DNA of 64,000 nucleotides from contig CM074516.1 of assembly GCA_037379345.1 (NCBI GenBank), forward strand, positions 27,900,001 to 27,964,000, in the 5' to 3' direction. Every line of letters starts with the position of its first letter. Within the stretch, counting starts at the first letter, position 1. The notes below the pieces were generated by a model, which had not been told where the DNA came from, made no database searches, and saw nothing but the letters and a program-made list of their open reading frames with translations. Positions 834 to 62,412 of this stretch are shown piece by piece. Made by a program: the position numbers and the translations under genes. Source of the DNA: Perna viridis. Its lineage: Eukaryota.

Positions 834-3800
834 GTATTCATATTTTAGATACTGCACATACATGTATTTATTGTAGAAACAATTCTAGGCCTATCACATA
901 TTTTCATATGTCATCTCGAATTTGACAACTTTGTATTTGTGCATATGTGTTTGTTTTTTTTCTACAGAAACAAGAAATAGTTATTTATAGTGTATAAGAC
1001 TTCATTATGGGCTGAGACTGAATACATTCACTTTTCTATAAGCAAAAAAAGAAATGGCACAATAAAATAAAGGGTTAAAGGTTGGTAATCTTACCAACAT
1101 TTGTTTGAAAAGCCTGTAAAATATAAATTTGAAGATGAAAAAATCTGTGATGATTATTTCATTCAGATTCTTTATTTTACCCAGTAACAATACATTTTAC
1201 ATCAGGTTGTGATGTATCACTGACCATGATGATGGCATATTAGCTGTTGAATATAGGTCATCTCCATTCTTAAACATATAATTGGTGAGAAAAAGACTAA
1301 AATGCCAGTTTTCTCATGCAAGTTTAGAAATTTTAGGCACTCTTTGGTAAGATATAAAAGTTCTTTAACTTGGCTGAGTTATATATCTGAGATTTCCTAT
1401 CTTATTCTCGCACTTATGTCAGATTTTTTATTTCCCAAAACTCTCTTCCAGAATATACAAGCCAACATGGGTAGTACAGAAGTTTACAGACCATTACACA
1501 GTTTCTTCCTCCTCAAGCTAGAAGCTTCTCTGAGAAATGTATTCCTGGTGTCTGATGGCCACATCAACAATGAAGAGACAACTCTAAAATCTGTCCATGA
1601 AAATTGTCATCACACTAGAATATTTACATTTGGTGTCAGGTATAAGATTTCAGGCATTTTTTGCATCAATTTCATCTCAAACTTCTGGGTTCAACCAATT
1701 TTAAAAACAAGAGATTGTTAATATTACTTTAATCATGTTAAGTTTTGCTGTATTCTAGTTTTTTTGTTTTTTGCTGTGGACAGAAAAATGCAAAAAAATA
1801 GTACACACAAAATTAATTTTAACATTATATTATGCTAAGTATATTTTGAAACCAAGACAATTTATATTCGTGAATATGTGCACTTGGTGGTACAGTCGAC
1901 TCCACTTAAACGCATATCGCTTTATTGCATATTTGGGTTATTAGCATAATTTTCTCCTGCACAAATCCATTTCCTATTAGTCTATTAGGGAAAAAATTGC
2001 TGATTTGCATATGCCTTGCAGGTGTATTTCAGTTTATTGCATAGAGAATTTTGCCTCATCCAGGTAAAGGCAGGTTTTCCCAAATTCTATTTTAAGCCTT
2101 CGGGTCATAAATATGTCAATCATATTTATTGTTGTAAAAACTATATTATCATCAATCAGGAGGTGTAAATAATGGATTAAAAACATAATGGACATAAAAG
2201 ACAATTTAAATGATTTCTAATTACATTAAAATAAACAAGCACTTAGGTGAACAATGACTTTTGACGACATGCCAAACATCACCTTATGATGCGACTTGGG
2301 ATATTTTTTGTCCCTATTTAAATTCTTCCAACTACAAATGATTATCAGTGTAAATTTAATTTTCTTTAATGAGCTGAACAGTTTTTAGTGAGCTTGGGTT
2401 ACTAGGCATAAATATCAACCAAAAATTAAAAGTCATCATTCATTCAGTACAATGTCAAATGAAATTCAACTACCCTAAGGTGCCCCATACTATCCACACT
2501 TCATAGGAATATATCGAGGTCAATGACACGTATAATACACAACTATCAATGTACAATGGTGATGAACAGAGGAATAAAAACACACAGACCATTTCAAAAG
2601 CCTACAAACTGCAAACATTGATGAATATTACACTGAATCCAATATATATTATTATTTATTGATAAAATAACAATACAATGAGAAGGTCTATAACAATTAA
2701 ATACCAGATCAGAAATGTTGAACAGTGATATCCCTGGTTGATCCACAGTATCGTCGTCTTACCTGAACTCACACTTCCGGTAAATCATAATTTCGGTTAT
2801 AAGAATAGCCCAGTTATTTGCATAATTTTTACTGGCAAATAGGCTATGCAATTAAGTGGAATCCACTATATAAGAAAAAATAAGCTACCGTGAAAATTAA
2901 TATGTATACAGTATTTGTCTTTGTTTATCTCTCCACTCTTCCTTACTTCTACACTAAAAAGTTTACTGGAACCGTTTTAATTTTTTGTGGATATTTATTA
3001 TCACGATAAGGCTGGCCTTTCTAATTTTGCATCTAACGCTCTGTCGAAAGAGTATTCTGTTATAAAGAAACTTAGTCACTGTCATTTTTTTTCTTTTGAA
3101 AAAAAATTGAAAAACAAATCACTCACAAAGATAAGTTGCTTTACTGTATTTTTAGTCAGTAATAATTTGTGTCTTCTTGTCTTAGTTGAGGGTAAAGATT
3201 TTTCATGATTTTGTTTTCTCATTTCCAGTTCGACACATAATAAGCATGTGTTAAAGGCTGTATCTAGACTTGGAGCAGGATCTTATGAATATTTTGATTC
3301 TCATGCAAAATCTAAATGGGAAGGCAAGGTAATAAACATTTATTTTAGTTAAAGATGTTTTTTGTAACAAAAGTATCATTTGTTTGTGTTTTAAGGTTAC
3401 AGTTTGATTGAATGTTTCAAATCTCATTTGAAAATACATCCTTTTCTTCTAATTCTGAGGTTTGATGGGTAAGATAATAAGCCGATTAAATCAAGAATTA
3501 TGTACATGTATGACTTTCTTTTAATTTATAAGTTCCATGGTTAGTGAAAACAGTATATCACAATATATCAATTCAAGTTTCTGTAAAATTATTAGTTTTA
3601 TGTGGTGTACTAATTTTTGCTATTTTTGTGGTGGACAGAAAAGCTTGAAAAATAGTACCAGCAGAATTGAGTTTAAACACTGTAAAATGCTTATCATTTT
3701 TTTAAAACGCACAAATTGATACCCACTTGACAGAATCAGCAAAAATTAGTAACTGCAAAAATAATATGTTTACAGTATTAAATTTCAACAACATAACAAT

Positions 3801-6800
3801 GAGCCTGGTTAAGAATGTTATTGTTTTGAAATTAGATAAAGTAAGTTAAAATTCAGCGATATTGGAATTTCATGAGTTTTTCTATTATTCCTTTTTGAAT
3901 ACAAGGCCTAATCTATACATTGCCCTGTCGTTTGAGAGTTTCATCCTTGTTTATTGAAGACTAGTGGGTCGTTTGGGCTGACATTATTATCCCAGTTGAC
4001 ATATACACCATAACTGATTGTCCTACTTTTGACATCACGTTTTTTTTTGTTGAATCTGATTTTATAGAAATGCAACATTATCTAACAACCTATCACTTAC
4101 AAGTTTACTATCTCATTGTCAATGGTGTGATATGGCAAAGTATCTAGCTATCCTAAAATGACCAAATCATAAAGAAAGACTATGTAAAATTTTACAGGTG
4201 AAATCTCAGATCCATAAAGCTTCCCAGCCAGTTCTGACCTCTGTTTCTGTTGCTTGGCAACAGTATAGTGACCCGCCACCAATACAGGCACCTCAACAGA
4301 TAACAGCTTTGTTTAATGGCTCCCGACTAGTGGTATATGGATTTATCAATAATTGTAAAATGGTAGGTACTTTCAATAGGATAAATTAATGTGTAAAATA
4401 TTAATGAATTATCTCTGATTCTGAAGGACATAGTATGACTTTATACAATAAAGGATAGTGACAAAATTACCACACTGATAAACTTTAAGCAATAAGGATT
4501 ATAGAAGAAAGAGAAAGTCCATATAACAAATGGCAAGATCAAGGCAAAATCTGGAAAGTTTTTGTAACTCTATCCCCCTGACAAATATTTGGTTCAGTCG
4601 ATGATTTATCGTTACACAATTGTTTATGATTTTATATAGATATAAGGAAAAACTTTGTGGGATTAGATCATTGGAATGACGTCATAATGGGGCCATAATT
4701 TTATGTCATTTAGCAAAAACTGCTGAGAAATGTAAATTTTGTTGTTTTTTCGGACATATTTACATCTAGAATACTACAGTTGAACCTCAATGTGTCGAAC
4801 GCGGAAGAGTCGAAATCTGGGATAACTCCAATTAATTTTAAATTCCCAGCAAAACTCCCCTTACTTGATAGGACTTTGACGTGAATTAACCCTAATGTCT
4901 CAAAGTCAACTTACAAAGTTTGAAATCTGATTTCTTTATTACAACACATGATCGATGAGGGTTTTTACAACAATTGGCATGTCTTTTGAAATAATTTGTT
5001 ATCACTCTATATGGCTTGATTTGTGTATTTAATTAATCTAGTGAATCTGCAATTTTTTCGCAGTAATGTACAGCACATGGCTTGACATAACTGCTGATTG
5101 TGAGTCATACAAAGTTATGAACTTATGACATTTTTTATGTAGAAAAAATGAAAAGGAAATTTCCTTAAAACACTCAATGCCTATCAGTATTTATAACATG
5201 ATATACAACACACAAAAAATGTTTTTTTTTAATACAAAACATAAGACATCATAAAGTACAGTGTTAAGTGAAGTACATGTACAAACACAACAAATGATGT
5301 AAATGCAGAAACAATCATCAACCAAACTGTTTCCAGGTTATACTCGACCTCAGATGACTCGAATCTCAGATAATTCAAACATTTTTGCCTGGTCCCTTTG
5401 ACTTTGATTTAACACGGTTCCACTGTATGTCCACATGCAAGAAACAACTTTATGTTTTCGCATGTGATAAACTATAAAATATGAAATGTATTCACTAAAT
5501 ATTAATTTGTTTCTTGAATGTGGACACCATTTCCTTGCCAAAAATATGACCGGAAAGTGCAAAATTTGACAGAATATCAGAATCATGGTTAACTTAAAGC
5601 AATTTTTCTGTCCTTTCAATGAAAAATTTATCAGAAGTCTTTATTTTTTCTCACTTGTGATGGATTCAAGTCTCCAAATTCATAATTAAATTGTTTAGCA
5701 CTATATGATTAGTTTTCAGTCGTATTTTAGGCCAATAAGATCCCTTAATTGCCCCTTCTTCTTATTGTTTAATTTTGAATGTGATCTTGCCAAAGTACAG
5801 TAAATGTGTGTCCCTTGTTATGTCTTTTGTCAAAACTGTACTTTTTGCTTTTTATGCAACTACAAAAATATTTGTGATCATATTATTGTATAAAGCTGTG
5901 GTCATCATTGTCTGTAGACATTCCATGTCCTGACAATAACTTGAGAATAGATTTCTAAGCAATTGTACCATAAGGTACAACACCACAAGAAGAAGGCTGG
6001 GATTGGTTTTGGGGGTTGTGATTTGAACTGTTCATGAATTAAAGACACAAAAGGGACAGTAACAAACATTTTGTTGATGTCCAGAAAATGACTTTACTAT
6101 AAATGAACAGATGCCTTATTACTATAAATAAATTGGTATTAGTTGTAGGGTTTGTAAACTTGAATCATTTAGGCATGAAGGTCCAAAAAACGAACCCAAA
6201 CATTCTTTTTCATGATGTTTTGCCAATAAGTTGATTACAAGTGAATGAATCTTTTTTAAGTTAGATCTGGCAGGTGTATTAATATCTTTTGAACATTAGG
6301 TTTTTTCTAGTTAATTTGATTTCATGTGCATTTGCTAGGCCACACTGAAGGCAGAGATTGGAGGACAGGAAATATCTACTGTTGTATCAACATCTGAACT
6401 GAGTCAGACCAGAGGAAAGGTATACAACATAAGTCATTGTTCTGGTGCTAAAAAAGGGGGAGAGAAATCACAGTATAGTGTATGAAAAACAGGTTACGAG
6501 TATTGTCCGGGTTATTGAATAGACATAATATAAGTAACAGTATTATGACTAATAGTGTTATCATTTTGCTATGTCTTACATGTGGGATTTCCATTCTAGT
6601 ATATGCTTTAACAGAGGCAAATTTAACAGGAAGATGGGGAAATGGTGCACAGGAACAGGATTTTTAGCAGATTGTTGATAAAGTGAATTTTAATTTGCTC
6701 ATTTGAATGTTATAAAATTAATTGGATAATGAGAATGTAATCCAGGGACAAAGACCAGACATGGAAAACAGACATACACAATAAAGAACATAAAGTAACT

Positions 6801-9800
6801 AAAATCATACATACAAAGTAACAAAAGTAAATGAGCAACTCGGACTCCACTAAAAAACTGGGAGCATGGACCAGGTGCACTGGTAGGATAAGCGTCCTCT
6901 GCTTTTCTAGAAACACCTGCCGAGTTGCTCATAAAAAGTCAAGTCCAAGGTGGATGAAAGAGGAAAGGAAAACTATGACATGTTGAACAAATCAGATTTC
7001 ATGGTGCAGATGGATACACTGTAAATATCCACGAGTTCATGATGACGACCATAAAACTTCTGTAGTGGTGACTTCAATCTTGTAGCAACATAACCCTGTT
7101 CCAGAAGCCTATTTGTTAGAATACAAATGCGCGATACAAAAAGTCTGTGTAGTTTTGGCAAGCTCTGGCATAACGTATGAGTTGTGATATGAACACTCTA
7201 TATGCAGGTGCTAAAGGAATGTTGCCACGGATGAAAGGAAAGTTGACAATTCTGAATGAAAAGTCATCAAGCTTGCCGTAAAGTTTGGTCAATAGTTTTC
7301 CTTTACCATTGATTTCTGAGTGTAGGTCAAGATATGGGGGTGACTTCACAGTGTCTGTAGTATCCTTTATCTCAAGTTCTTTGGGATAGATGCGATGTAT
7401 CAAATCCCCAAAATTAGGATCGTTTAAAGATAATATGTCGTCTTTAAAGCGGAAAATGAGATTAAAGGATCTAGATAAAAGATAATATCTACATAACAGA
7501 ATGCTGAATATGTATTAGAAAAAATAACAATAGAAAAACACATAAAAACACATTGTTCATGGTATGCACTTTCAGTCATCTCAAGTATTCAGACAGTTAA
7601 TATTTATATGAATTGGATTTTGTTAATAATGAATTTTTGATGAAGATATTTTTAATTCCTGTTGTCACTGCCTAATGGATTTATTATGATTGGCAGTGAA
7701 AGTAATTTCGGTTATTTATTCTTACAGGTATTACACTGTATGACAGCAAAAGCTATAATCAGAGACTGGGAGGATGGAGTTCTCTCCACTGACAGCATAC
7801 ACCATCAGGTATATATATATTGCTAGAAGTTAGGGGAGAGGCTTGAACTATTGACTCTAAAAGACCTTTTCTTTAGAAAAAATGAAGAACCACTTTTTTG
7901 GGAGCAGGGCATAGTTAAAAGTGCCTGATTTAGGATTGTGACTAGTGTATAGTATTTCCAATTTGGGATTGATTTTCATAGAATTGAGGGACCAATTTTT
8001 GGGATATATTAACTTAATTTTTTCTAAACAATGCAAGTGTGGGCACATGATATTTTAGGCATACTCTCAAAGATTCTTTAATTTTACCTTTTGGCTACAT
8101 TAAGATGGGGGTAAAAGTCATGAAAGGTCTTCATCTTCATTCATTATCAGTCTATTAGTATAATGTATGTGAATGATAGAACCCTAAATGGTAGCAAAGG
8201 ATTATGCCAAGTTGTTCAGATTTGGTCATTTGACCCAGGAGAAATTATGTGATATTCATGTTTATTCAAGTCACTAGATTTACCCAAGCCAGGTCTGGTT
8301 ATGAAATTCAGGTCAAATCTGACACAAATCTACCATACCAGCTTTATTATCATTATAATGTGTCATTGGTGTTTATTTTGTTAGATGAAGAAAATGGACA
8401 TGAAAGATTACATTATTGAACTGAGCAAGAAATACTCCATTGTAACTCAACTGACCAGCTTTATTGCTGTAGAGAAAAGAGAAAAGGTACAAGTGGGCAA
8501 TAATTTCTATTTCAGATTGAAGATTTGTTAGAGTCTATATTTGTCTGTCATTCAATTATACCCATGCAAAGTTTCTGGAATCATCAGCCTTTGAATGATT
8601 TTAACCAGAATCTGCATGTTACACGTAGGTACATGTACATCATTAATTCCATGCCAATCAAAAATTCGATAGTTTTCAAGGTAAGAGGTCAGATTATATC
8701 CATGCGATACTTGTTTTTTTTTTATCTTCATAAAATGATAAACACTGGTTAAATTTCTCACTTTCTGTACTAAATATTTTGTTGATAGATTCTAGTAAAC
8801 AGATATAAATATTTCAGGATGAAGTATTTCCTACTGATGGACCTTCTATAAAACACCTGATTCATGATGAAGATGTTGATTCTCTGCCATACGTATCATG
8901 GCAAGAAGGTACAAAGTCACATATAGCCTCACCAAGTTAATTACTAGGTGCTTGATTCTTCGGCACTCCCATGTAGTTTGTAGAGCTTCATTACTGTTTG
9001 TTATTGCCATTTCAACAACAAATGAAATGAAAAAATACAAAGTATGTTCGTCATATTTTTTCTGTCTATGAATAATGCAAAAAAATGCCCTCAATAGTTT
9101 TTGGGGATGTTACTCAAGGCACATCGAGGGTGTCAAAAGGACACTCTAGAATTCTTCGTGTTTTATGTGTAAAGTTGAATGCCCTATAAAACAAATAATT
9201 ATTATTTCAATACACATAATCGTAGTGTATACTGTTCAAAGGGAAACAATCCAATTATTCAGAACAACACAAATATCAAGTATATATAATATAAACTTTC
9301 TTACATGAATACTTTCTAGATGGATATTTCATGTCCAATTATGAATAATAACTATATGCAAAATTATGAACTAGAATACTAAATTAAATAAATAGGAATC
9401 AAGGTAATATTGGAATTTATTATATAGACAGCAGTGATTTACTGAATTTTCCCCGTGTAAAAACTTGGATGATAAATAGGATAATCAATTGGTTATCATG
9501 AATAAATAAAATATGATCACTCGTGCCAAGAATGCATTAAGATTTAACTTTTCGCACACTCTTTAAATCTAGGTTTTCTTTGGAACTCGTGTGTGCAGAA
9601 CAATTTCCGCACACTTAATAAATCTAGGCATTCCTCGGTACTTGTGATCATATTTTTGTTAGTTATTCTTTCCAAAATTATTTAAGAAACTTTGATGCAT
9701 TGTTCATATCAATTGACGTAAGCTCCCTTCTGATTTGTATAAATGTCAAATTTTATGTTTTCATGTTATGAAGTTTTACTTTTTAAAAAACAGCAGAAAT

Positions 9801-12800
9801 GGCCAAGGAAATTTATTTGTTGAAATAGTGTTGAAAACGAATCATTTGTCATGATAGTGCCAAATTTTTTGTGCATTTTTTATTTACTTTTTTTTGGGGG
9901 GAGGGTATTTGACAGGGCTCATAGGTATTTCTAGCTGAGCATATAACTTCATTAAAAGCATTAGGACTAGTTAAAAGGGCAACGGGTGTATCATGCACTC
10001 AAAGTGCAGCTGTTTATTATAGAGACAACTGATGAAGGAGCACAGTATACTTCATCAGAAGATGAGGATGAAGATCAGATGTCATCTACTGATTACTCTG
10101 ATTATAACTCATCAGAATGGGAATGTGAAGAGGAAGAGGGCCAGAAAGGTTCTAAAAGAGTCAAAACAAAAACTTCAGATTTATCAAGTGATGATGAACA
10201 AAGGGAAGGTAAGATTGCCTTGACAACATAGGATATGTTATTAAATCCCTCCATTCCCTACCTGCTGCCTTTCCCACCATTTAGAGAAGGGTTTCACTTT
10301 AATTATTGCTTGCTCATTTGTTAGCCTCACTTCCACAAACAATGTATTCCCTTTTTTCTTTTTTAACAGTGCTCTATTTGTTTCCCAAGCTTTTCATCGA
10401 TGCTTAAGGAAGCATAGTTATTGATGTAAATGTTTGAAAGGTCCTTGTCAGGCCATTAATATCAGACATTTTGCCAAAATTTGCTTTGACCAACTTGCTT
10501 TGATTAATTTATTAAATTAAAAAATTTACATTTATCAATATTTAAAATTTTTCACAAAACATTTCAGCATAACAGTTATGTAGAATTGTACTATACACTC
10601 AATATTTTAATTTAGACTTTTTTCCATTTTGAAAAAAAATTGAATATAGACTTTTCTTAGAATTTAAGGAAGCATTCAATCTGTTTGCCAAAGATAGTGG
10701 TGGCATCCAATACAAAGATCTACATTCAGCCATGAGGTCAATGGGTCTCAATTCTACAGAATCAGAAATGGCAGATATTATGAAAGAAATGAATGTTTCA
10801 GGTAGTCATTAAACATATTTAAAAAAAAAAGTGTAATACACTGAAGGATTGTTTTCAATTGCTGGTTAGAACGTGGGATATAAACGACTTTGAGTCAGTT
10901 TACACTGAATAAATTGCAAAGCGTTTTATGTTACAGTGTAAATCGACCCAGAGTTATTTATATCTCATAACAAACAATTGAAAACAATTCTTAAATACCA
11001 GAAAACAAAAATAAAATCACAATATATATATGAAATCAACATTTTTTTTAACACACATCAATACTGTCAACTGTCAAGTGATTGCACCATTTGTTACTTA
11101 CATGCAAGCTTTTAGTGTATTGGGATACCCCATTGAAGTAGTTCCATAGTTAGGGGGCATGGCTAAAATACCAAGATAGGTTATACAAAATGGACAATGC
11201 TGCTTAATATCGTTAAACTATTCAGAATTTCACAAAAATAAAAATATATTGTAATAATTAAAATTTTGAAAGGATTTGGTAACTGAAGTGATGATTATCA
11301 GTGCTCATAATAGGGTTTGTAAGTCTTGTCATGTGACTTGTCCTAGTCTACCATTGACATGCATAGAGATTTGTCATTTTCAGAGTGTTGGGTTCAGTAT
11401 ATAAAAGCAAAACATATGTTTGCGTAAAAATACCAATGCAAATGACAAATATCTACTTCAACATGATAAAAGTGTAAAGAAAAGGGTAAAATAGAAGATA
11501 TTGCATTGTAAGACAGCGTTTCGAGAGCCTGGAATTAAACAATAAAATGCAGACCGGTCTTTGGATTTCAATACGTTCTACATCAGAAATTTTTTTAAAA
11601 AATGGAACTAGGACGAGACTTACAGACCCTTTACCCCTCATGAGTTACTACTGTAAGTTAGTGATTACTTGTGTCACCAACATTGATAACATATCTAGTA
11701 GCCATTCAACTCCTTCCCTCCTTATGGCCCGTCAAAATGTTCCCCTTCTTCTGTATAACATGGAATGCAAAGAACAGCATTAACAAATATCTAATAAATC
11801 TTACTGTACTCGGCAGGTAATGATGTTGTCAACTTCAACCAGTTTTTATCATTGGGGAAGAATAGAATGAAAGACACAGATGCTGAGGAAGACATTATTG
11901 AAGCTTTTGCTGTGTTTGATAAGGATGGGACAGGTCACATTAAACAAGAAGAATTACTTCATATCATGTCCAACCTAGGGGAGACAATCACTAAGGAAGA
12001 GACTGCTGAGATGATGCAAGATTTAGGAGGAGAAAGTGGGATGGTTAATTATAGGGCATTTTGTAGGTCAATGATGGAGAAGACAGATGTACCTAGAGAA
12101 GCTATTGGTCATGGTTCACATGGTTCGTCTATCATTACTTCTTTGTTTAAATATATGTTGTCTGGCAGGACTCTTCTAAAACTTATTAGAAGGTTGTATT
12201 TGAGTTATCTAAAATATCTATTGGCCAAGAAAAAGAAACATTACATTTTGAGTGACAGCTAGTGGTCATTTTTCAGGTCTAATCATACATGTACTTTTCA
12301 AACATTTGCTGTTACACTATTGATTCAATGTAAGAACAGGAATGCAATGGTGGACACATTTTTCATATTATAGCAAATGTGTAAATGCAGAAATAAATTT
12401 TATCTGAGAAATGATTTTGTTTTTAAAAACTGTTTATTAATACTGGTTTTGTAGAAATGCCAGTTTTTTCTGTTGGTATGTCCTGATTCCTTTCTCTTTA
12501 GGCAGTTTATTATACTCCTCTCATTATAGTCGGAGCTGGACTATATTGCAATAGCCCTGTCTGTCCATCTGTCTTTTAATTTTTCTGTCACATTTTTCTG
12601 TATGACTATGGTTGTTATGACTGGAACCAATTATTTATATGGGGCCAAAGAGGACCCATTTGATTCTGGTCAAATTCTTGTCCTTTGTCAAAAATATTGC
12701 AATCTTATTCAGAGCAGTATCAAGCTTGAATAGTGTGTCCATATTTGTCTAGCCGAAACTGTTCAGCTTTAACTTCAGTGATCATATCAGGCTGCAACCT

Positions 12801-15800
12801 GCAAAATATTTTATTCCCTTATTTGTGGGAGGTATATAGTGGTCATTGTATTTGTTTTCTCCATTCATCTTTCCGTTCAACTCTTTCATTTTCTTTTTCT
12901 CTGCAACTACTTTTCACGGACACTTTATATATTGACAGAAATCTTTACATAGGTATGACATATGATTGGAATTGATTTCAGACTGAAGCAACATCAACTT
13001 TCAGTTTCTATTTTGATCATATGGTTACTGGAGTAGGGGCATTCTTTATTTTTTATCTGCAAGATTTTTTTCCACATTTTACACCCAAAGCTTCCTAACT
13101 AATGTATAGATTATGTCTCCCCAACTTTGGTTGGGGGACATATTGTTTTTGTCCTGTATGTATATCTGTCTGTCTGTTTTTTTAACTTTTGTTAGCACAA
13201 CTCCTCAGAAACTACTACACAAAAATTTCATGAAATATAATTTTGTAAGTAAATGAAGTAAGGACATGGTATGTTGTTGAACACATTACCAATTATTTAT
13301 GATCCATTAATTATTTACCCTTTTGAACTTTGGAATGGGTGCAGACTTTTTTGTAGGAAAAATCAATCTTTGGTTTGACATTGTAGGAGAATTAATATCA
13401 ATAGAAAGTGAAACAATGTATGAGGCAGCATCTACAGAAAGTGAGAGTGAACCTGAAATGGACTTTGATTTATTTGACAGTAAGTGTAAGAGCATGAATG
13501 TTAATATAATGTAGCAATAGTACAGCACAAATTAAATCTCTGGCATTATTGGTACATGTGATCATGCTTTCTCATTATTATCCTATTTATGACAAATGTT
13601 AACGATCAAGAATTTCTTTGCTTTTTATTTTTTTTCCTACTTGTATAAGACACTATACTGAAATTGTACTTAAAAAAGGAAGGCTTTAGTTGATTTTTTT
13701 CCTTTATATTTTTATCAATTTCAGTGAAAAATGCTGTCAATTTGAAAGAAATTGACCTAAATGGGGAAATAGTAAAAATAAGATTTTTCAGGGAAGGTGA
13801 AAAAATTGGGTCGGAGGGAATGAGAATCTAGGATATTTTTTTTATTTAAGCCCAAACTGATAAATACTAATCAATTTAATTTACATTGTTGACAAGCCAA
13901 AGTTATTAAATGTTGAAATAAAAAATGCTGAAGCATCTACTGAAAGTGAAAGTGAAGTTGAAATGACAGGTTTATTTGACAGTAAGTATAAGGGGCATAA
14001 AAGTTAAAATAATACTGCAATGTTAGGTAAAACAAGTACAGCACAAGTTAAATCTCAGGCACTATTTGCATATTGTGATCTCATTTCTACCCTATTATAT
14101 CATACTAAAGCAGTTGCTATGTTAGGGTTTTGTTTAATCTTTTGCAATAATCCTCAGCAACCGTTCATTTGAGTGATTTATACAATGTTTTTATTCCTTT
14201 ACAGGTTTTCCCTATTGTAATTTTTTTGACTTTGTAGGACAACAACTTGTTTCCTGGGGTATTTTATTATTGTTCACCATAAAAATCTTATTAACCTCTC
14301 ACTGGAATGATTCAAAATTAGATGTGTGTCTCCTTGATTTGTTGTACCCTATTTAAACTATAGGCTCCGTCATTTGGTAAAAATTGATGATGTTGCTTTA
14401 AAGCATTTCCTAATTTTTTGTACAATATAGTGTCCAAAGCATTTGTTGTGTCCATAGTAAATTGTAAGTCCTTATGCTTAAGTGTGTCAAAAACTTGTAT
14501 TGTGTCTGAACTTGCCAAACTGTTCAGGGTATAACTACTGGGGTTTTACCATATTGTGCTAAACGAAACTTTTTATTGTATTTCTCAACCATCAAAACCT
14601 CAATGATTTGTGTTCGGTGCACTGTAGTTTTTGTGCAGTATTACATACAATTTAAACACTCCTGCACCATATGCCGATAATTGAAAGATTGATTTAACTT
14701 ACAGTGGATATGGGGACTTTTGACGAAACAGAATGTGCAAAGGCAACTAAAGAAAGTGAAAGTGAAAGTGATGAGGAAGTTGGTTTTGGTTTATTTGAAG
14801 GTAATTGTTAAATAATTGATTTGAGAGCATGAATGTTAAAATGGTGACTGACAATTTCTGTAGACCCAACACAGCACAAGTTCTATCTCACTTTTGTCAT
14901 TGGCGATCATTGTATGATTATCATTTTATCTTATTACATTTACTATAATACATTTTATAGAAGTTGACATTTTTATGACTGCAAAAAATTACTTTGTATT
15001 ATGTTATGATGTCCTTGTTGTTATCCTACAATAAACACTATTTCTAATTATGAAAAGAATCTGCCAAATACTTTTCATGTTATTGTGCTATGTTTGACTG
15101 CTGCCTATCAGACCACCCCTCTATTGTACAACCCAAAACTAGGAACAGATTTTTTTTTATGGAGATGTATAAGATAATAAATCTTGTTGAATGTTTAAAA
15201 TCAATGAACGGTAGACCCATCAAAACATCTAAATATAGTTATTCCATTATTTATATGCAGAAATTGTGAAATACCAACCACAATAATTTTTTTTCCTCAC
15301 TAAAAAGACAAGAAAATTCCTATCTTTAGCTATGCAAGATTTCCTTATCTCATCCGCGGGTTGATACAGAACCTGCTTTCCTGTAAAAATTGGCACTATC
15401 AAATAATGAGTTAGTGAATGATAAGATCTAAAGGAATGTTGGTAAGCACTCATAATATTAGAAAATCTTAATTATCTTGTTTGCCAGGCAGTGACTAGAA
15501 TATTGAAACAAAAACTCCAATTTGGAAATGAAGTTTGAACAGAGTTAAAAGTATTCACAAGGGTAATCAGTATGAAATTAACCTTTGACCTTAGAAGCAC
15601 TGAGAGCCTAATTTCAGTCGTACAGGAAATTAAGCAGTAATACTGAGTAAGGATTCCTTTATTCTCCCTTCCTAAACAGAATGTTTGCTTATCTTACGGT
15701 TTTTGTTATTAAATTAATCTGAGATAGCAATCAATTAACCACAAATATACATGTAATTAGAAAAAAGTTTTGATTTTGCAAAAAGTTGTAAAACAACTAA

Positions 15801-18800
15801 AGATAGGTAGCATATTTAAAATGTTAGTTTCTGAACCTGATCACTATTGTTGTCCATAAATGTTTGTAGTTAAAATAAATCCCTAAAACTGTCAGGTTTT
15901 CACACAGCTTACTTTCATCCGCACCATCTAGCACACTGATGTTTGTTTATTTTGGCTGTAAAAGTTTTTGCCTATGGTATAATTTTGGTGTGTTAATTTT
16001 GGCACTTTTCAGAGAGAAGCTAGATAAAACAATATAAAAGTACCACCAAAATATCCAAATTTACTGTATTTATTTCATCAATACTCAAACTTATTTGGTA
16101 GTAAAGCAAAACTAAGAAGTGTTAATAAAAAGGTGTTTGTCAAAGTGAGGAAGTCCTTGGACAAAAACATGTTCAGGAACAAATAATCTCACATGGTCAA
16201 ATAATTAAGAAAGACGAAAATTAAAAAACACACAGATAGGAGAAGTAGATCAGTAACATGTATATATTCTTGTAAATGCACTGCAAATGAATAACTCCAG
16301 TAGGAGATAGCTGTCAAGTAGTTTTAATTGTTTGTTTTTGGATTTTTGGAATAACCTAAAGCGTAGCTCAGTGATAGAAAGTGACTTAAGAGTACTTTGA
16401 AATAACAAATAAATATCAAATCTGCTTCATATAAATGTATACATATTTTGATTACTTCCTACAATTTATTCAGGAATTATTGTTTTTTGGAAAAATTTAC
16501 TTTGTGTCAAAAACTTCCACTTTGTAATTAACTGATTACTCTGTGTCAAAAACTTACACTGTGTAATTAACTGATCACTCTGTGTCAAAAACTTACACTG
16601 TGTAATTAACTGATTATTCTGTGTCAAAACTTACACTGCATAATTAACTGATTACTCTGTGTCAAAAACTTTCACTGTGTAATTAACTGAATCAACCACA
16701 TAGAGATATTGGGTCAAGCAGGATATGACTTCAATGAGTGTCTGTTTGATGGTATATGTATAAGGCTGGGTACTTTGGAGCATTTATTTTTTTTGGTGTA
16801 GGATCCATGTCTATTGTATATTTATTAAACTTGAAAGTATATTTATATTTTCAAACAATATCAGTATTTACAAATTCAGCTATTTTGATATCCTTTAACA
16901 GAAAACTAATTGACAGTGATATTTTACTAAATTGTTTTTTTTATGTTAGATTTTTTTTGTAGATGACAGCTATGATACATATGAGCCCCCAGTTGCAAAA
17001 GCTCTAAAGGCTACAGCTAACAGTGACAGTGAGAGCTTGAGTGAAGATGACTTAGCACTGCTTCATGGTAAGACTTTTTGACATTTTTTTATTATATGAT
17101 GGCAAAAATTATTTTTGGTTTTATAATTGAATCCCCTTGTCATTGTCGTTGGCTCCCATTTTTTAATCAGATTCCTCATTGAAGTTCTTGCCTGTGTGTT
17201 TGAATCAGATTACAGAATCTTTTACAGTTTGCAAATTATGTGGGGTCAAAAGGGGTCACACCTTTAAAAAATTGTCTTTATTTTATTTTTTGTGCAATGT
17301 TGAAAATTTTATTTCATTAGTTTCCTCATGGAAACCCTTGCCTGCATTTTTCTATCTGATATCTCTAACATTTTTTGAGTTATAAGGGGCCAAAGGGGAT
17401 CGTGTCCAAAAAGATTGACATTTTTAGGTTTGGTGCAAATTGAAAAACTTTTTTTATTGGATTCCATATGAAAATCCTAGTCTAAATACAAGAGCTTCAA
17501 GAAGTATGCTTACCAAATTTACCCTTTCATTCACTATTTTTGATATGATGAGGTACAAAGTGAACTACAGTGAATAAAGTGAATACACCTTAAGCAGACC
17601 TTTATACTTAAATTGAATTTCAAAATGCTACACAATATATTTTATCCATAATAAACTGTAAGTCCCTATGTTTTGTGTGTCAAAAACTAAGAGTTCAACT
17701 ATCTAGAGTCATATCATGCAGCACTCGGTGAAGTTTTTATTGAACCTTTAACACATTGTTCTTAGGAACATTGCCGAAGGACACACCCCAAAAAATAAAC
17801 TTTAAAAAAAAATTTTGTCTGCTTTCAATTTTTTTATTGGATTTCTTATGAAAATGCTTGAAATGCAATTAAGTCAGATTACAGATAGCTCTTACCATTT
17901 TCAAGTTTTAAAGGGTCAATTGGACCACACCCCAGAAAATGGATTTTTTAAATTTTTGGTCCTATTTTGAGAATGTTGAATTAAATTTTAAATTATGTGT
18001 CCTAACCTGTTATGTCCATGATGAATTGTAAGACACTATGCTTAAGTGTGTCAGAAACAAAAAAACTGAACTTGCCCCAACTGGACAGGGTTCGACCACT
18101 TTGGTCGTATCATGCTGTGCTCCACAAAGATCTTAATATATAATTAATATAACTTTTATGACCAAGCACATAATCTTAAGTTACTTCAATGTGAATCATT
18201 CCTGTTTTTAGACTAGATTGTGCATTGTTGTTGACAGTTGGATCCCCTGTTTTTGTTAATGTTAATATTTTGCATAATTGGCCAACAATTACCCATATAT
18301 AGCCAATTATAGTTGTAACCCCTCTGTTTCCTTCAGTCCTTTTTTAAAACCTATCTTCTATAGTACTTCTTTTTATTCTACTACTGGAACCATTGTCCAC
18401 CTAATGAGCAGTTTCCCCATATCTTTGCCTTTAATAACTTCATTCAAAGAGCTTTGTAAGAAAGAGTTACAGATACTTATAAATATAAGTGTCATATTTA
18501 TTTATACTTTGTTCTATTTAACTTCAAATAACAAAGAATATATTTATCTTGTTTTGATATGACTATTGTAGAGTTTGGAACTGCTCTGAAGCAAGTTCTA
18601 CTATAGCTCTTGGGTTGAATTAACTGTACTCTAGCCCTTGGTCTGAAATACCTATACTTTAGCCCTTGGGTTGAAATAACTATACTCTAGCCCTTGGTCT
18701 GAAATACCTAAACTTTAGCCCTTGGGTTGAAATAGCTATACTATAGCCCTTGGTTTGAAATAACCATATTGTAGCTCTGTGGTTGAAATAGCTATACTAT

Positions 18801-21800
18801 ACTATAGCCCTAATGGGTTGAAATAACTATACTTTAGCTCTTGGTTTAAAATAAATATACTAGAACTCTTTGGTTGAAATAGCTATACTGTAGCCCTAAT
18901 GGGTTCAACTAACTATACTATAGCTCTTGGGTTGAAATAACTGTACTATTGCCCTTGGTTTGAAATAAATATACTATAGCCCTTTGGTTGAAATAAGTCT
19001 ACTGTAGCCCTAATGGGTTGAAATAACTATACTATAGCTCTCTGGTTGAAATAGCTATACTATACTATAGCCCTAATGGGTTGAAATAACTATACTTTAG
19101 CTCTTGGGTTGAAATAAGTATACTATAGTCCTTGGGTTGAAATAACTCTTCTGTAGCCCTAATGGGTTGAAATAACTATACTATAGCTCTTGGGTTGAAA
19201 TAAGTATACTATAGCCCTTGGGTTGAAATAACTATACTCTAGCCCTTGGTCTGAAATACCTATACTTTAGCCCTTGGGTTGAAATAGCTATACTATAGCC
19301 CTTGGTTTGAAATAACCATATTGTAGCTCTGTGGTTGAAATAGCTATACTATACTATAGCCCTAATGGGTTGAAATAACTATACTTTAGCTCTTGGTTTA
19401 AAATAAATATACTATAACTCTTTGGTTGAAATAGCTGTACTGTAGCCCTAATGGGTTGAACTAACTATACTATAGCTCTTGGGTTGAAATAACTGTACTA
19501 TTGCCCTTGGTTTGAAATAAATATACTATAGCCCTTCGGTTGAAATAAGTCTACTGTAGCCCTAATGGGTTGAAATAACTATACTATAGCTCTCTGGTTG
19601 AAATAGCTATACTATACTATAGCCCTAATGGGTTGAAATAACTATAGCTCTTGGGTTGAAATAAGTATACTATAGCCCTTGGGTTGAAATAACTCTTCTG
19701 TAGCCCTAATGGGTTGAAATAACTATACTATAGCTCTTGGGTTGAAATAAGTATACTATAGCCCTTGGGTTGAAATAACTATACTATAGCCCTTGGGTTG
19801 AAATAACTATACTGTAGCTCTTGGGTGGGAAGAACTATACTATAGCCCTTGGGTCGAAGTATCAGTACTATCAGCCTTTGGTTGAAATAGCTCTTCTATA
19901 TACCAGTTTAAATAATGACAAAATAATTTGTAAAAACTATGTAACTCTTTTTTTAATTTCTTAATTTTGTAAGATAGACAGGAAGTATATGTAACACATG
20001 AACCTCATGAATCTTGTTAATCATTTACCCATTCAAAGTAGACTGTTGGTCTTATCAATACTTGGAGCCTCTTGCTTTTATTTTTCATTACAAGGTAGAC
20101 AACTCAAACTAATTAATGTGTGAATGCTATGAGCCTCTTATTTACTCATGACATTCTAGCTGATATCTTGATCAATAGATTTTACCCTTGAGCTATTAAA
20201 GCCTACATAGGACCATTGGTTCTGAGATGTGTTCACTGTTCATTAGTACTTTGACTTCTTGTCAGTTCCCTTGGTCAGTTCACCTTGAACATTTAACCAG
20301 GATACACTTGTCTCTCTTCACCTTGAATATTTAACTGTCATACACCTGTCTCTCTGAAGGTAAATACATGTATTTAAACTTTAACTTTTGTCTATTAGGA
20401 GATTTATTGTTTCCAAAATATTCAAAAAATTGTTTTAGATTTTGGAATAAAGAATAATTTAATCTAGAACGTAGTGTTAAATTGAATGTTGAGGTGTGAT
20501 TCTGAGTTCTGTCTTGCATGTGGTCAGGACATTTTGGTTTTTGAAATCTGCCATTAGGAGCTGTTTTACTGATAATAATGATAATAGTTTGGGACTCACA
20601 ACTGTAAACTCTTATGGCTGATTCTTAGTATAGTTAAACAGAGCAGTGTAAGAATCCATAAAAATAAAATTCAGTTATTCTTGTTTATTAATAACTCCAA
20701 TTCTTTTTTTTTCTGAAATACAAACTATGAAGGTGAAAGTCAGTACTGTAAAACATGCCCAAAAGTGGCAGTGCCTTTAATATTTGTAGTAGTGGAATTA
20801 CTTAGTGAGGTAAATAGATGGCCTTGACCAAATGTACTAGAGGGTTTTTCCTTAAATTTGGTTAGTTAATTAGATAGTACTGGTATCTTAGGTTATGGGT
20901 TTTATACGACAACTACCACTTGATGACTTTTTACAATAGTATAAAATTTGTTAGGTATATAGCCAGCCTTAATCAGCTGAGGAAGGAAGTTAACCCTTTA
21001 GTTAGAGTGCTGACTATTGAATGAGAGGTTCCAGGTATGATTTATACAACTACCACTGGATGACTTTTTACGATAGTTTAAAGTTTGTTAGATATATCAT
21101 GTATATAGCCAGCCCAAATCAGCTGTGCTAGGGAGTTTATCAGCTCAGTCAGATTGTTGATTATTGAAGGTTCAATCAAATAAATACTTTCTACAACAAT
21201 ATCCGACTTTGCCATTTATTATATTGCACTGAGCTGAAAAACAGATTGCCAAAGATGCTATAACACTGAAGGAAGGCTAGTTGGATTTTTGCAGTTGAAA
21301 TGAAATGATAAGGAATAGGGGTCAGACTAAAAATGGGCTAGAAATAAGCATTTTTATCATGTTTAAACAATAAATTGATTGCCTTGATATTGCACTACAA
21401 GGTGCTATACAAGGAAGGGTAGGATTAATTTGGGGGTTGTGATTGGAACCACTTTTATACAGATGCAAAAAATGTGCAGTCTAGTGGGTAAGGCGCTGCT
21501 GTTTTTGTCATCATCCTTAGACACTTCTTTATTATGCATTAATTTGAAAATTGATTTGTTGATCATTATAAGATTTATCAACAAGGTTACAAACTACGCA
21601 AGGAAAGTCAGTATTGGTTTTTTGGGTTTTGGCCCCAACTGTTATAAAGTTAGGGGCAAAAGGAGGGGGGGCTTAAAAGTAGCATTTCATAGAGTTTAAC
21701 TTTAGAACTCCAGTAAAACCATAAGAATGTCTATGATATTGTTCCACATTATTCTATACCTCAATGATCAGACTTGGATTTTCAGAAATAATGGACCAAA

Positions 21801-24800
21801 AAAGGGGGTTAGAAACATATGCATTTTCTTGATGTCCAGACAATAACTTGACTACTAGCAAATAAATCTCTTTGAAATTGTATTACAAGGTGTCATACCA
21901 CCAAAGGAAAACTGGGGTTGATTTCTGGGTTAAGACTTGAACCTTGTAGGAATAAAGGGCCTGAAACTAGCATTTTCCATATATCCATACAGTAACTTGA
22001 GTAAAAGTTAATGGATCTCATGTAAGTTTTGCTGCAAGGTGCCATACCACAATAAGAAGATTGAGATGGACTTCTTGGTTTGTGACCTGAGCTAAGTAAA
22101 ATTAAGGGGCTACAAAGAGGCCAAAAATAAGTATTTTTTTCTGATTTCTGGACAAAAACTTGAGTGAATGGAAATGGATCGCTTTGAAAATGTAGCATAA
22201 GCTGTCATATCTTAACAGGAAGTTGGTGATGGATTTGCAAGTTTTGACAAGAACTATATAGGAATATGGGTCAAAATGTGACCACTTCATTTTTGGTCAA
22301 ATTTTTATTCTTGTCAAATATCGAATCATAAATTCTAAATCTATCTAAATTCACAGCTGTATCAAGTTTTAATGGTGTAACCATATCAGGGTTTTATCGC
22401 TGACTGTATCACGCTGCAGCTTGCATAGATTTTTATAAAATAAGGGGCAAAAAAGGGACATTTTATTCTGGTCAAAAGAATATTTTGCCAGAGCTTTATC
22501 AAGCTTGAATGGTGTGTCCATATTTATCCCATCTGTTCAGGTTTGGAACTCTTGGGTCATATCCAGCTGTATCCTTCAATGAATTTCACTTACAGTGATT
22601 TTCCTACAACCATGACACTTTTTCGGTACCAATCTTCAGAATAGTACAAAGGATTGGACAAAACTATTGGGACATATTAACGACCAGTTGCTGTTGTAAG
22701 AGTTGATGAATAGGTAGCCACTCTCTTGTGAAAATTCACCTGAACAGGTGTAAACCAGCCAATAGCTTATGTCTCTCTTCATAAAGAATGTTCTCATCTT
22801 ATGAATACTTAAGTCAGATTGTGGTGGATTTTGTGCATTTTGAATTTGAAATTATTTTTTAGTTATTGCATATGAAACATATGCATGTTAGATATTTTCT
22901 TTGTATGTGTCTAACATATGTAACACACTTACATATATGTGGAAAGCTTATGGTTTTTAAATTTTAAAAATATTTTATGAAGAATAAAGCTTTAAACTTA
23001 AGGGTTCCCAAGTGGATTTCAAATTTGAAATCTATAAACTTGTTTCAGTAACATTTTCATGAAATGATAACTGATTAAGTTTATGCTACAATATATTTAA
23101 ATCGTCCTGTCTAAAATCTGAATCCATTGAGTACTGGCTCATTATTCAAAATAGATGCATCCTAGTACCAGTACATGTATTTGTTTAACTAATTCTAATG
23201 CATGTAAATTCTTGCACTATGGTTTCATTATCTTGTGTTTAGGTATTACAGTTGTGTGGTTATTATAACTTTGAAGAACCTTTTGTGCTTGAATAGATAT
23301 TCATTGCATAATGACATTATTTATATTTTAACCACTTTATTGTTTAGTCATGTCCTCTTTCTGTCTATATGTCATTCTAAGGTAGTCATTGCTATCTTAT
23401 ATCAACTTGCTGTTCAGCAAAACATATTATGTTTCAATACATGTAAAAATATACTGTAAACCAAGAAATTTTTGCGTGATATAAACTTTCACGGTTTTCA
23501 TTAGCCTGTAAAAATCGCAAAAGTTTATATACGCGAACAAATCGGGGAAATTTGATTGATCAGGTTGGGTGTCTTGTGTACAATTATACCATCGAATTTT
23601 CCAGTTGATCAAATACAGTTATCTTTCTTTGATTTTAATTTTTGTCTGAATACCTGAAAAAACATAAGATAGGTATATAAAATATTTATTTTTAATTCAC
23701 AATAAAATAATGTTTTGTAGCATATTTGAACTTTAAAACATCCAGTTTAAAATCACTAAAACACTGGGGTTTCAAACGTTTGTAGTACGTCAGCACAACT
23801 CTCATTTCAGCATCCCTGATCTGCGCCATCCAGTTTGAATAACGTTGGTTTCTTTCCTGATTTTTTCCCACGCATTTATAATCCATCTGGCATTCACGGG
23901 TTTAATGTTTGAAAGTTTAACGTCAACATCACACTCTTTAACAGATTTTCCGGCTTTCAGTTGTGATGAAATCTGTTTTGCATACCAGTAGGCAAACTGT
24001 GATTTTACTACCTCCTTGAATTGAGCATTGCCCTGTAGGTATAATGGTTGAAAGTTTGAATAAATCTTGTAAAAACTGTTCAAAAGATCAACACCTAATG
24101 TACCTAATTAACTTATACAAACAACTTGACCACTTAATCAATAAAAAGACTATATTGTTATCGAAATCTCTGACATTAGTATTAAACATCACCAGGGATT
24201 AAAAGGTAAAACAGAAATTTAAAATCCACTTAATTGTGAACAAAATATTGTTTATACAGCAATCTTTACTTTTATTTATTTTGATATAAGTTTTCATTAT
24301 TTTCATCAAAGGCTTGGGTTGTCTGATCAGGAAGGAATAGCATGAGTAAAATTTATATTTTTTTTCAAAAATTAAAATTTATTTGAAATATAAATTAGAC
24401 TAACCTTCTTGGTGCATAGTCCAGTTTCCACAAGGAATAATGCTGATGTTGGTTTGATCAAAATTGTTTATCATTTCATGTAGAATTTGACGTTCAGTGA
24501 CAACCGTGTGGGTGCTTGAGAGAAAATCAAGTTTCTGCTCTTCAAAGTCAAGGTGTAGTTTACGGGCTGCCTATGTGCCTTTCTGTCTGAAAAATCCAAT
24601 TCGTCTTAGGAACGATTCTGTTCAAGAATGTTAAAGACTAATGTGTCCTCTATTTTCACGTAACAGGTGTTTTGTTTTCTGTTGAATTATTCCGGTAGCA
24701 CATGCTATCACAATTTGTTCGCTGACAATAGCTCCCAAATTGTGAAGTTTATGAACATAGTCAACTACATCCTCGTCATACTTTCTAAGCAATAGCGGTC

Positions 24801-41542: not shown

Positions 41543-42601
41543 TACTTACTTACTTACTGCCCTTTACGCCACTGGCATGTAGGGCAGCAACGAAGTTCCT
41601 CCACTCTTGTATATCATTGGCAAGTTTCTGTAATGTGCCCCAAGTCTTCTTATGCTCTTTGACTTCTGCTTCAATGGTGATCTTTGGGCGTCCTCTCCTG
41701 CGTTTTCCCTCAGGTGTCCAGAATAGGGCTGTTTTTTGTGTTGTCTTTTGGGTCTTTTCGCAGGACATGTCCTAACCACTTCCATCTTCGTTTCATAATG
41801 ATGGTGGCCATGTCTTCTTGTTGGCATCTATTAAGGAGGTCCTGATTACTGATCTTAAGAGGCCAACATATTTTTAGGATCCTCCTCAGACTCCTGGTGT
41901 GAAAGGTTGAGAGTTTGTGTTGGTCTAACTCTGTTATCCTCCAGCACTCTGACCCATAAAGCAGGATAGGAAAGACGCAACTGTTATACAATTTTAGTTT
42001 GGTGCGGATAGTGTATTGTCCTGATCTCCAGACAGGTTACAAGCTATTAAATGCTCCTCTTGCTTTTGAGAGTCTAAGGTGGATGTCGCTCTCCGCACCT
42101 CCATCAGTTGTAACTATACTACCGAGGTATGTGAATTTGTTGGTAAAAGGTAGACATTGTTCATGCAGTTTGATAGGTGTTGGTGTGTTTACATTCAACA
42201 TCATAACCTCGGTTTTCTTTTTGTTGATGTTTAGCCCAATTTGTCCTGCAAAATTCTGAAGTTTCTTGGTCTTTTCTTGTATGTGTTGGTGGGTGTGAGA
42301 AATCAAAGCTATGTCATCGGCAAAGTCTAGATCTTCCAAGATGGAGAAGGCATTCCATCTGATGCCTCTTGGTGTATCTTTCGTTGTTTGTCGCATCACC
42401 CAATCAATGGCTATGATGAAAAGTATAGATGACATAACACAGCCTTGACGGACTCCAGTTTTTACATTGAAATACGTGTCGCTGTTGTTTCCGACTCTGC
42501 ATCTGAAGTTCGTGTAGAAACTTTTGATGACGTCCATAAGTTGTTGTGGTATTCTGTATGATCTAATTATTTTCCATAAACTTTCTCTATGTATGCTATC
42601 A
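41543..42601 (-). mobile_element. 5'-truncated RTE-clade LINE (RT C-terminal part), frameshifted
   Basis: ORF 42037..42615 (FDSIHRESLW, GVRQGCVMS, DLDFADDIAL, FTYLGS), continued in 41710..41991 and 41550..41768; (TAAG)n tail; AAGGTAG direct repeats at 41536-41542 and 42602-42608. Confidence 0.92.
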
Positions 42602-43426
42602 AAGGTAGGATACAAGTATAATATATAAAAGTTTTTTGGTTTTTTTTTCAGTTTGATGTTTGTCTCTAATTTAAGTCATATGGGATTATAACTATTTCTA
42701 TCATTCACTGAAAAAAATCATGTATCATATTTCTTTAAAATAAAACTAAAAAAGATAAAACGAAAATTATCTAAGCCCACGAAAATATAACTGCCCCCCT
42801 AAGAAACCATATTGTCACGATATAAACAAACTCGTCGAACGGGAATTTAGCTTCAATCCTCATTCGAAACCCAAAAATTTATGCCTCTATATCTAGCCTT
42901 TATAAAAATATCAGGTATCCGTAATAATTTTAGAAAAATACACTTACAACGAAAAGTTCTGAAAGGACGAACGGATACTGTTAATACCATACATATCCCG
43001 CAAAGTGGGACATAAATAGATAGTTTCCATTTTCACAGAACATATTTCTATCGAGCAGCATATCATTAGATATTAAATAGGCCTTCAAATAGTCTTTGTA
43101 TTGTAATGTTATATGTTCCCGACAACAAAGTCTGATTTTGACATTATTTTCTATGTTTTATTTTTTTAAATTTTTTATTGTTGCCTTTTTTGATATGAAA
43201 CAAATGAAAGGAAGTACCTAAAATTAAACTCATGTAGAATTGTATAAAAATGTGCAAAACAATTCTCGCGCATAAAGTACATATATCTGTACCTGCAAAT
43301 TCGTCTTCACACTTACGCTTTTATACAAGCAGATCTGAATAAACCATGAATATTCAAGTACAAAATATAATTCCCAGGAAGTGAGTATTTCCATTCACCA
43401 TCTAAAGTGTATTTTATATGAGCAAC

Positions 43427-61600: not shown

Positions 61601-62412
61601 ATTGAAAGGAGGAATAAAATCCTTCGATCCGATGACAGCTGCTTTAAGGCATAACACCTTATTCAGATGATAATTCAGATGGCTATTTTATACTGTTGTC
61701 AATAATCGTTCTCCTGAAACTCACTAGTTAGATAAATTCTAAGTTATTTTTTTAAGAAATCAATTTCATAATGAAGTTGATACACTCATGAAAAAAATAA
61801 TCATTTTAGTTATTAAAAAAATTGAATATCAACATAATATGACATTTATATTTGCTTTTCTTTTCATTGCAAGTAAACATAAAGAACGCGGAGTATACAA
61901 AGAAGTCTGATGAGGTAGCAATGTCTTTGTAATAATTTGTATATAAAGTATTAACAACTGAAAAAAAAAGCTTCAATTGATTTGTATCCAAACTAAAAAT
62001 TGAACATAATATACTAAAATGGAGCTTCATTAACCAATTAACTATAGCTACTTAACTTAACTACAAAGTACATTTATTTATTCTTTCATTTCATATTAAG
62101 CCAGTCAATTAGTAAAAAAAATAAAAATTGCTTTAATTTCTACCCGAACGACAAGAAATGCAATTAATATAATTAAAATTCCCCTAAGAGATGGCACCAC
62201 AATACAATTTGAAGCAAATATATTCGTTATAAACATTAGTGACAAAGAAATTTATGTGTTCTTATATCAATATTTACACAATGAATCAAACCCCGTTCGA
62301 ACAGTTTTACGAACATGCACATCACCTTACGATAAGAAACTATTGATCGAACCATGTCCTTCTTTATATATGTAAAGTATCAAAATTACATTTGACTTGT
62401 TTAAATTCAAGA

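Follow-up and report, generated by a model that had tools for sequence, protein, structure and literature searches.

Introduction

Vertebrate PARP4, the vault poly(ADP-ribose) polymerase, consists of a BRCT domain, a catalytic domain, a region resembling the inter-α-trypsin inhibitor heavy chains (ITIH), a disordered linker and a C-terminal domain (PMC4038475, PMC10450202, PMC12280208). The Daugherty 2014 study found positive selection in the linker exon of the vertebrate gene and proposed contact with pathogens (PMC4038475), Suskiewicz 2023 suggested the linker as a cleavage site (PMC10450202), and Perina 2014 described domains of 14-3-3, actin and ubiquitin appended to certain PARPs of clade 5 (PMC4245714). 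The homologous ITIH4 is cut within residues 633–713, after which it holds the protease through the MIDAS (metal ion-dependent adhesion site) of its VWA domain (PMC7793589). The function of the vault was still termed unknown in a 2026 preprint. Here, we describe a PARP4 gene of Perna viridis, the 3' part of which lies on the + strand of a 64,000-nt stretch of DNA (GCA_037379345.1, CM074516.1, positions 27,900,001 to 27,964,000 of the forward strand; hereafter, the window). Its linker includes spliced exons that derive from calmodulin and from the tails of the ribosomal P-stalk proteins. The array exists, is transcribed and is under selection, and it exemplifies a pattern that runs through the whole family.

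An earlier interpretation of the window from its letters (the sequence-only reading) had taken the arrangement for an integrated decoy, or else for Ca2+-regulated recruitment of translation factors to vaults, and as a whole it is partly supported. In the open literature (closed and subscription journals and preprint supplements were outside the scope), we found no report of calmodulin or P-tail pieces in PARP4 and no reading of the modules as baits or decoys. Nor does a bait reading appear in the accessible text of PMC2964712, PMC10539598, 10.64898/2026.05.01.722283 or 10.64898/2026.09.21.753143.

The PARP4 core and the spliced linker

Mytilus PARP4 proteins align exon by exon from ≈18 kb upstream of the window through the stop codon at 37723, with 74–89% identity over most core exons by tblastn. 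In the upstream region joined to the window, the same tblastn comparison gave the domain order BRCT, PARP, VIT, VWA. The exons for BRCT, PARP and VIT are found upstream of the window, those for PARP catalysis at a distance of 5–7.5 kb. The H-Y-E residues are intact in these exons (motifs LFHAS, GIYF and DDEYVVY); the absence of a PARP domain, which the sequence-only reading had named as a result that would count against it, was thus not observed. Within the window, tblastn placed seven exons of the VWA domain and the rest of the ITIH-like region at 760–833, 1451–1639, 3227–3328, 4198–4362, 6339–6419, 7728–7808 and 8385–8486 (all exons of the gene are on the + strand). The VWA MIDAS is complete (DxSxS, T, D). 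The final core exon (8818–8908), identified by homology and by RNA joints on both sides, carries the conserved LPYVSWQ motif and a phase-1 donor, and the linker begins after it. In the core tree, the gene sits in the mussel-family clade with a support of 100/100. By membership the gene belongs to PARP4, or vault PARP, and catalysis is predicted from the residues.

Six expressed exons follow the LPYVSWQ exon, all with lengths that are multiples of three and with phase 1 at both ends. Between 8385 and 26562 the frame stays open over 662 codons, without a stop. Each of the eight GT..AG joints between 8486 and 25695 was read in all three raw RNA runs, of which 19–24% was read, with 1–13 reads per joint per run (in order along the gene, 2/2/5, 6/1/3, 4/13/6, 5/9/12, 7/1/9, 8/4/12, 3/3/7 and 5/1/6). 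The same eight joints are present in a fourth run, one of contigs, and a 1633-nt RNA contig holds the acidic exon described below, both calmodulin exons and pieces of the Pro/Ser exon. Exon skipping, which had been named as a refuting result, was not seen among the 15 of 17 joints listed.

The first linker exon (10023–10208; phase 1-1, RNA joints) is acidic and rich in Ser, Asp and Glu, and Pfam and PDB searches for its donor gave no match of note. This exon intervenes before the calmodulin part and so corrects the order in the sequence-only reading, in which LPYVSWQ was followed directly by calmodulin, the tails and a Pro/Ser-rich exon; the in-frame continuation itself is borne out by the RNA joints. 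The large, disordered Pro/Ser-rich exon occupies 25695–26559 (RNA; homology to Mytilus). A short K/R-K-T-H-G motif occurs twice in it, at 25883–25950, and recurs in many bivalve linkers. The last linker intron contains a tandem array with a unit of ≈31–33 bases (18560–19880), over which the RNA depth is almost nil.

The modules originated by exon capture at the DNA level, as follows from the phase-1 exons, the native calmodulin introns and the tandem duplication of the tail exon, described in the next two sections.

The calmodulin-derived part

Two exons together span approximately residues 11–148 of calmodulin. Exon 1 (10661–10801; RNA, splice positions) covers residues ≈11–59 and includes a degenerate EF1, with acceptor and donor at the native calmodulin positions. 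Exon 2 (11817–12122; RNA, Pfam) covers residues ≈60–148 plus a short read-through and matches Pfam EF-hand_7 with an E-value of 9e-9. The copy is 49–52% identical to five free calmodulin-type genes in the same genome, and, like them, is spliced in phase 1 at residues 11/12 and 59/60; the intron at 140/141 of the free genes is absent from the copy. Descent from a calmodulin gene is the evident reading of these features. Because the acceptor at 10661 and the internal intron match those of the free genes, this part arrived as DNA by exon capture. An origin as a retrocopy was ruled out by the retained 59/60 intron, and a calmodulin gene nested within an intron was ruled out by the splicing of both exons to PARP4 exons on either side.

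Of the four canonical calcium-binding EF loops of calmodulin, only that of EF-hand 3 keeps its canonical ligands, both in the Perna copy and in Mytilus, while EF1, EF2 and EF4 are degenerate. Four-site calcium switching is therefore unlikely, and the Ca2+-regulated alternative in the sequence-only reading is weakened. Compared to the free genes, the proportion of synonymous differences (pS) is 0.79–0.84 and that of non-synonymous differences (pN) is 0.29–0.30. The synonymous sites are saturated, so that a dN/dS ratio was not computable; with pS saturated while pN is low, the copy is old and kept under constraint.

PARP4s that bear calmodulin occupy separate clades in the core tree, which suggests either repeated capture or repeated loss. 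In the tree of the calmodulin module itself, six of eight inner branches were open, and one capture could not be separated from several. Two records of one Mytilus galloprovincialis gene, P0003 and P0004, differ mainly by the calmodulin part, possibly by alternative splicing of a module or by a difference between gene models.

The P-stalk-tail exons

The best copy of the P-stalk tail is the expressed exon C (14705–14800; Pfam, PDB, RNA), which ends in GFGLFE. It matches Pfam Ribosomal_60s with an E-value of 0.003, all 24 of its PDB matches are to P0, P1 or P2 (with weak E-values), and it agrees with the genome's own P-protein tail at 10–11 of 14 residues. Exon A (13387–13479), which ends in DFDLFD, is likewise expressed according to its RNA joints, and agrees at 9 of 14. 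An acidic run with a GFGLFD-type end is present in both exons C and A and lacking in exon D (16963–17067; RNA joints), an expressed acidic linker exon that is at most a decayed tail; it is doubtful as a P tail because only 4 of 14 residues match. Copy B (13892–13981) is a pseudo-exon: its acceptor AG has been replaced by TG, and the RNA skips it by the joint 13479>14705. Four working tails, as initially considered, were thus ruled out, and the tandem P-stalk tails of the sequence-only reading are reduced to two good, expressed copies. The tail motif occurs three times in the window and in none of 60 block shuffles.

Copies A, B and C have common downstream intron DNA, which points to tandem duplication of the tail exon. 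The last exon of the genome's P1/P2-type gene has a phase-1 acceptor and the same end motif before its stop codon. In the tail copies a splice donor stands where the stop was, and the motif is thus internal, rather than at a free C-terminus on a ribosome-anchored protein.

The same linker site across eukaryotes

Related proteins were gathered in sets of 96, the best 120 of 936 and the best 150 of 18015. Pfam scans were made on 21 and 26 chosen records, and motifs were counted in 180 PARP4-like records with at least 250 residues after the core. The motifs were those of actin, ubiquitin, 14-3-3, P tail, RNA polymerase II C-terminal domain (CTD), SNARE, HSP70, calmodulin and histone tails. At least one was found in the linker of 102 of the 180 records and none in the core, while 78 records had no listed motif; isoforms and close relatives are among the records counted, and the numbers do not stand for independent events. 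None of nine named vertebrate PARP4s carried any module motif, in agreement with the statement of the sequence-only reading that the vertebrate protein lacks the calmodulin-like and P-stalk-like modules; here the vertebrate linkers differ from those of the carriers. The P-tail motif was found in 28 of 75 linkers, in no core and at most once in 200 block shuffles. CTD-like heptads occurred in 19 of 75, and linkers also had histone H3/H4 tails, arginine/serine (RS) tracts and acidic serine tracts. Polyproline, WH2 and actin pieces co-occur.

After the core, Pfam identified 14-3-3, ubiquitin, actin, synaptobrevin, Snf7, HSP70, EF-hand and Rpb1 repeat, and further pieces of WH2, PDZ, clathrin repeat, Ras family, kinase, PTB and eIF5A. 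SNAP-25 and Ran pieces were found by PDB match, Ran being one of the Ras-family pieces. The Mytilus orthologs have calmodulin and tails plus Snf7, a SNAP-25 helix and two HSP70 pieces. Animal carriers include sponges, cnidarians, molluscs, an annelid, echinoderms, hemichordates and lancelets; protist carriers (7 of 10 named) include Dictyostelium purpureum, Heterostelium, Pelomyxa, Euglena and Entosiphon. The expectation of different domains at the same site in orthologs was thus confirmed far beyond the two modules, by Pfam, by motifs and by a paralog (described below).

The carriers in the Perina 2014 study were amoebae, Capsaspora, lancelet and sea urchin, and three module kinds are in common with ours (PMC4245714). 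Calmodulin, P-tail, SNARE, endosomal sorting (ESCRT), HSP70, CTD, histone and GTPase pieces do not figure in its section 3.1.2; there, the pattern of fragments at one site is not remarked upon, and the appendages are read as links to signalling and the cytoskeleton (PMC4245714).

A deeper bivalve line of PARP4 paralogs (P0117, P0118, P0125) has ubiquitin, histone H3 or H4 tails, clathrin repeats or EF-hands. Other VIT loci in the Perna genome include C9:508488. Modules turn over between paralogs and between species.

Surfaces retained by the modules

In the ubiquitin copies the terminal GG was kept in 27 of 30 unique copies, followed by Pro in 20 of those 27. A proline after the GG of ubiquitin resists host deubiquitinases. 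The P tail is the contact of ribosome-inactivating proteins, and SNAREs are the targets of neurotoxin proteases.

Over 23 unique fragments, actin residues 36–51 share 99% identity with the actin of the genome; for this figure, 5 of the 16 positions served as the anchor and one truncated record was dropped. The flanks have an identity of 40% for residues 8–17, 93% for 18–23, 53% for 24–35 and 30% for 59–70, and the rest of actin is missing from the linker fragments. Bacterial grimelysin cleaves actin between Gly42 and Val43 (PMC7311988). A brittle-star actin fragment, P0034, ends precisely at the site of the 41/42 intron and is nearer to actin than most, which hints at a separate, younger capture.

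The animal 14-3-3 matches cover only the protein's C-terminal part. Over the five best of seven first-round hits, the stretch of helices 8–9 (the helix labels are our own) is 69–90% identical, vs. 32–52% for the two preceding helices, and the groove Asn is changed in four of five; two dictyostelid proteins match nearly the whole of 14-3-3. (An iterated profile rose from 7 to 36 of 95 records, and was not used as a count because of possible drift.) Helices 8–9 are the interface for ExoS and ExoT (PMC6141617), and a Vibrio MARTX effector prefers calcium-free calmodulin (PMC11266601). Taken together, the modules retain exposed surfaces while the native function decays, and each of the retained surfaces is a known point of contact for pathogens.

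The 3' exons, the tandem paralog and the neighbourhood

For the exons 3' of 26559, the model rests on splice sites and homologs rather than on RNA, and its frame stays open for 613 codons up to the stop. They comprise three predicted linker exons (26993–27101, with weak homology, 28533–28655 and 31567–31765; splice sites, open frame) and three exons of a domain of the type that interacts with the major vault protein (MVP), at 34627–34751, 36132–36231 and 37401–37723, the last of which ends in the stop codon (homology, splice sites). These C-terminal exons have 62–66% identity to Mytilus proteins bearing PF26156; a search of the C-terminal exon against the PDB gave no direct match to the MVP-interaction domain (MINT) of human PARP4. 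MVP genes are present in the genome as repeats at three loci, two at C9:21.62-21.67 Mb in opposite orientation and one at C6:0.17 Mb.

A second PARP4 lies 160 kb upstream (C6:27720000-27776000), and its core groups with that of the window gene with a support of 84/76. Its linker contains an actin D-loop exon (phase 1-1), polyproline and a VAMP-like stretch (tblastn E-values of 0.003–0.03), with a WH2-like motif, identified by eye, beside the polyproline. No calmodulin or tail match was found in this paralog, and its actin exon lacks the 41/42 intron, unlike the genome's actin genes. The C-terminus of the window gene is nearer to the other Mytilus paralog type, a discordance that may reflect gene conversion.

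By eye, open reading frames (ORFs) of TRIM type with B-box and coiled coil, some broken, lie directly 3' of PARP4 on the + strand (44674–46254, 49382–50926, ≈55600–55850 and 62400–63900). Broken ORFs at 23805–25245 (−) look like a DDE transposase remnant, and fragments like reverse transcriptase of retroelements were seen at 41553–42675 (−) and 7119–7514 (−).

Function of the linker array

We lean, by a modest degree, towards the view that the linker of the spliced PARP4 is an exchangeable set of baits by which toxins, effectors and proteases of pathogens are brought onto the enzyme. The copy would be bound or cut by a pathogen enzyme that depends on, or is directed against, calmodulin, the P stalk, actin, 14-3-3, ubiquitin or a SNARE. 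The VWA domain, with its MIDAS, would next keep hold of this attacking enzyme, as happens in the homologous ITIH4; the PARP domain would modify the attacker by ADP-ribosylation or send a signal, and the C-terminal domain would either tie the complex to the vault or release it from there. More tentatively, and a little short of even confidence, PARP4 might be an ancient eukaryotic integrated-decoy receptor and trap, with a linker library that catches pathogen toxins and proteases, which would then be ADP-ribosylated and shut inside the vault. With the same reserve, somewhat below an even chance, this receptor and trap could span amoebozoans, euglenids and invertebrates, its linker holding copies of the cell's least changeable proteins.

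Several points weigh against a role as bait. The P tail also binds elongation factors, and the D-loop binds partners of actin. The match to toxins was in part made after the fact, as nearly any conserved hub is a toxin target. The limits given above with the actin figure, the 14-3-3 figures and the record counts belong here, together with the nearly complete dictyostelid 14-3-3 matches, the records without a listed motif and the module-free vertebrate linkers. The Arg preceding LELG, which by position we take to be human R1689, is present in 47 of 82 records and is Thr in the Perna gene; because of this substitution, binding of the Perna protein to vaults is not assured. Helices 8–9 of 14-3-3 are reported to bind yeast trehalase as well. 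Human PARP4 lies in the vault lumen, which may hide the baits, and in PARP4-depleted cells the vault interactome is altered (PMC12280208).

The altered interactome fits recruitment of cargo, in which the modules would be docks for the host partners of the copied proteins (elongation factors, targets of calmodulin, regulators of actin, SNARE partners); these would become cargo of the vault or substrates of PARP4, and pathogens would play no part. In Dictyostelium, 80S ribosomes are enclosed in vaults (PMC13100048), which favours cargo over bait, the joint occurrence of polyproline, WH2 and actin pieces points the same way, and the appendages have been read as signalling links (PMC4245714). A housekeeping list should be stable, however, and neighbouring paralogs and related species carry unrelated sets; the modules have lost ligands for calcium, the groove residue of 14-3-3 and the greater part of the actin fold, and vertebrate vaults exist without any module. 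We consider the docking of host partners rather unlikely. The CTD-like heptads, histone tails, RS tracts and acidic serine tracts are substrates for modification and would suit a linker that internally reports on, or acts as a sink for, kinases, caspases, deubiquitinases and methyltransferases of the cell itself, in which modification or cutting under stress switches PARP4, pathogen or not; human PARP4 does act in an apoptotic cascade (PMC13127586). However, the Pro that follows GG in the ubiquitin copies suggests that cutting by the host has been selected against, and the HSP70 substrate-binding domain, Ran and Snf7 are folded donors that are not obvious modification reporters, which makes this role quite improbable.

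A tolerant phase-1 linker might also acquire exons from strongly expressed genes and let them decay, with some of the records being fusions within gene models. Such neutral accumulation would account for the dead tail copy B, for donors that are abundant multi-copy genes, for the two records of one Mytilus gene that differ by the calmodulin part, and for those records that are unsupported predictions. It does not fit the constitutive inclusion of the module exons in RNA, the saturated synonymous vs. low non-synonymous change, or the retention of the same short surfaces from sponges to molluscs and of the same kinds of module in amoebozoans and euglenids. As a general explanation it is very improbable, and for the Perna gene it is largely refuted.

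If the linker of PARP4 is a bait array, it would offer a concrete, testable answer to what vaults do. It would also extend the integrated-decoy principle from plants to an animal and protist enzyme and link it to the ITIH4 trap, and would explain the positive selection on the vertebrate linker. If PARP4 is the ancient receptor and trap described above, vaults would have a role in defence, and the linker of each species would record which host surfaces its pathogens attack. If the modules instead recruit cargo, they still name candidate partners.

Comparison with known systems

In the integrated decoys of plant nucleotide-binding leucine-rich-repeat receptors (NLRs), domains of host targets are captured in frame at one site, with fast turnover between paralogs and loss of native function. 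The PARP4 linker resembles them in these traits, with variable, in-frame, host-derived domains at one site, and to this extent the NLR-type decoy proposed by the sequence-only reading holds. No NB-ARC or LRR was found in the Pfam scans of the PARP4 homologs, and the scaffold is a vault PARP.

The PARP4 core aligns to ITIH4 residues 266–616 with an E-value of 1.8e-12, and is also homologous to ITIH1. The match ends at 616, ≈16 residues before the start of the linker, so that the module array occupies the place of the ITIH4 bait. Both proteins have a VIT–VWA core with MIDAS, directly followed by a variable region that in ITIH4 is the bait (PMC7793589). ITIH4 differs in being extracellular and without an enzyme domain, and its bait is unstructured sequence (PMC7793589), whereas PARP4 is intracellular and carries copies of host proteins in the linker of an ADP-ribosyltransferase. 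Alpha-2-macroglobulin likewise has a long, variable bait whose cleavage triggers trapping, but has an unrelated fold, traps covalently and is extracellular (PMC7793589). ITIH4 rather than the plant NLR is the closest mechanistic model, and the Perna protein most likely works as an ITIH4-like trap with integrated host-protein baits.

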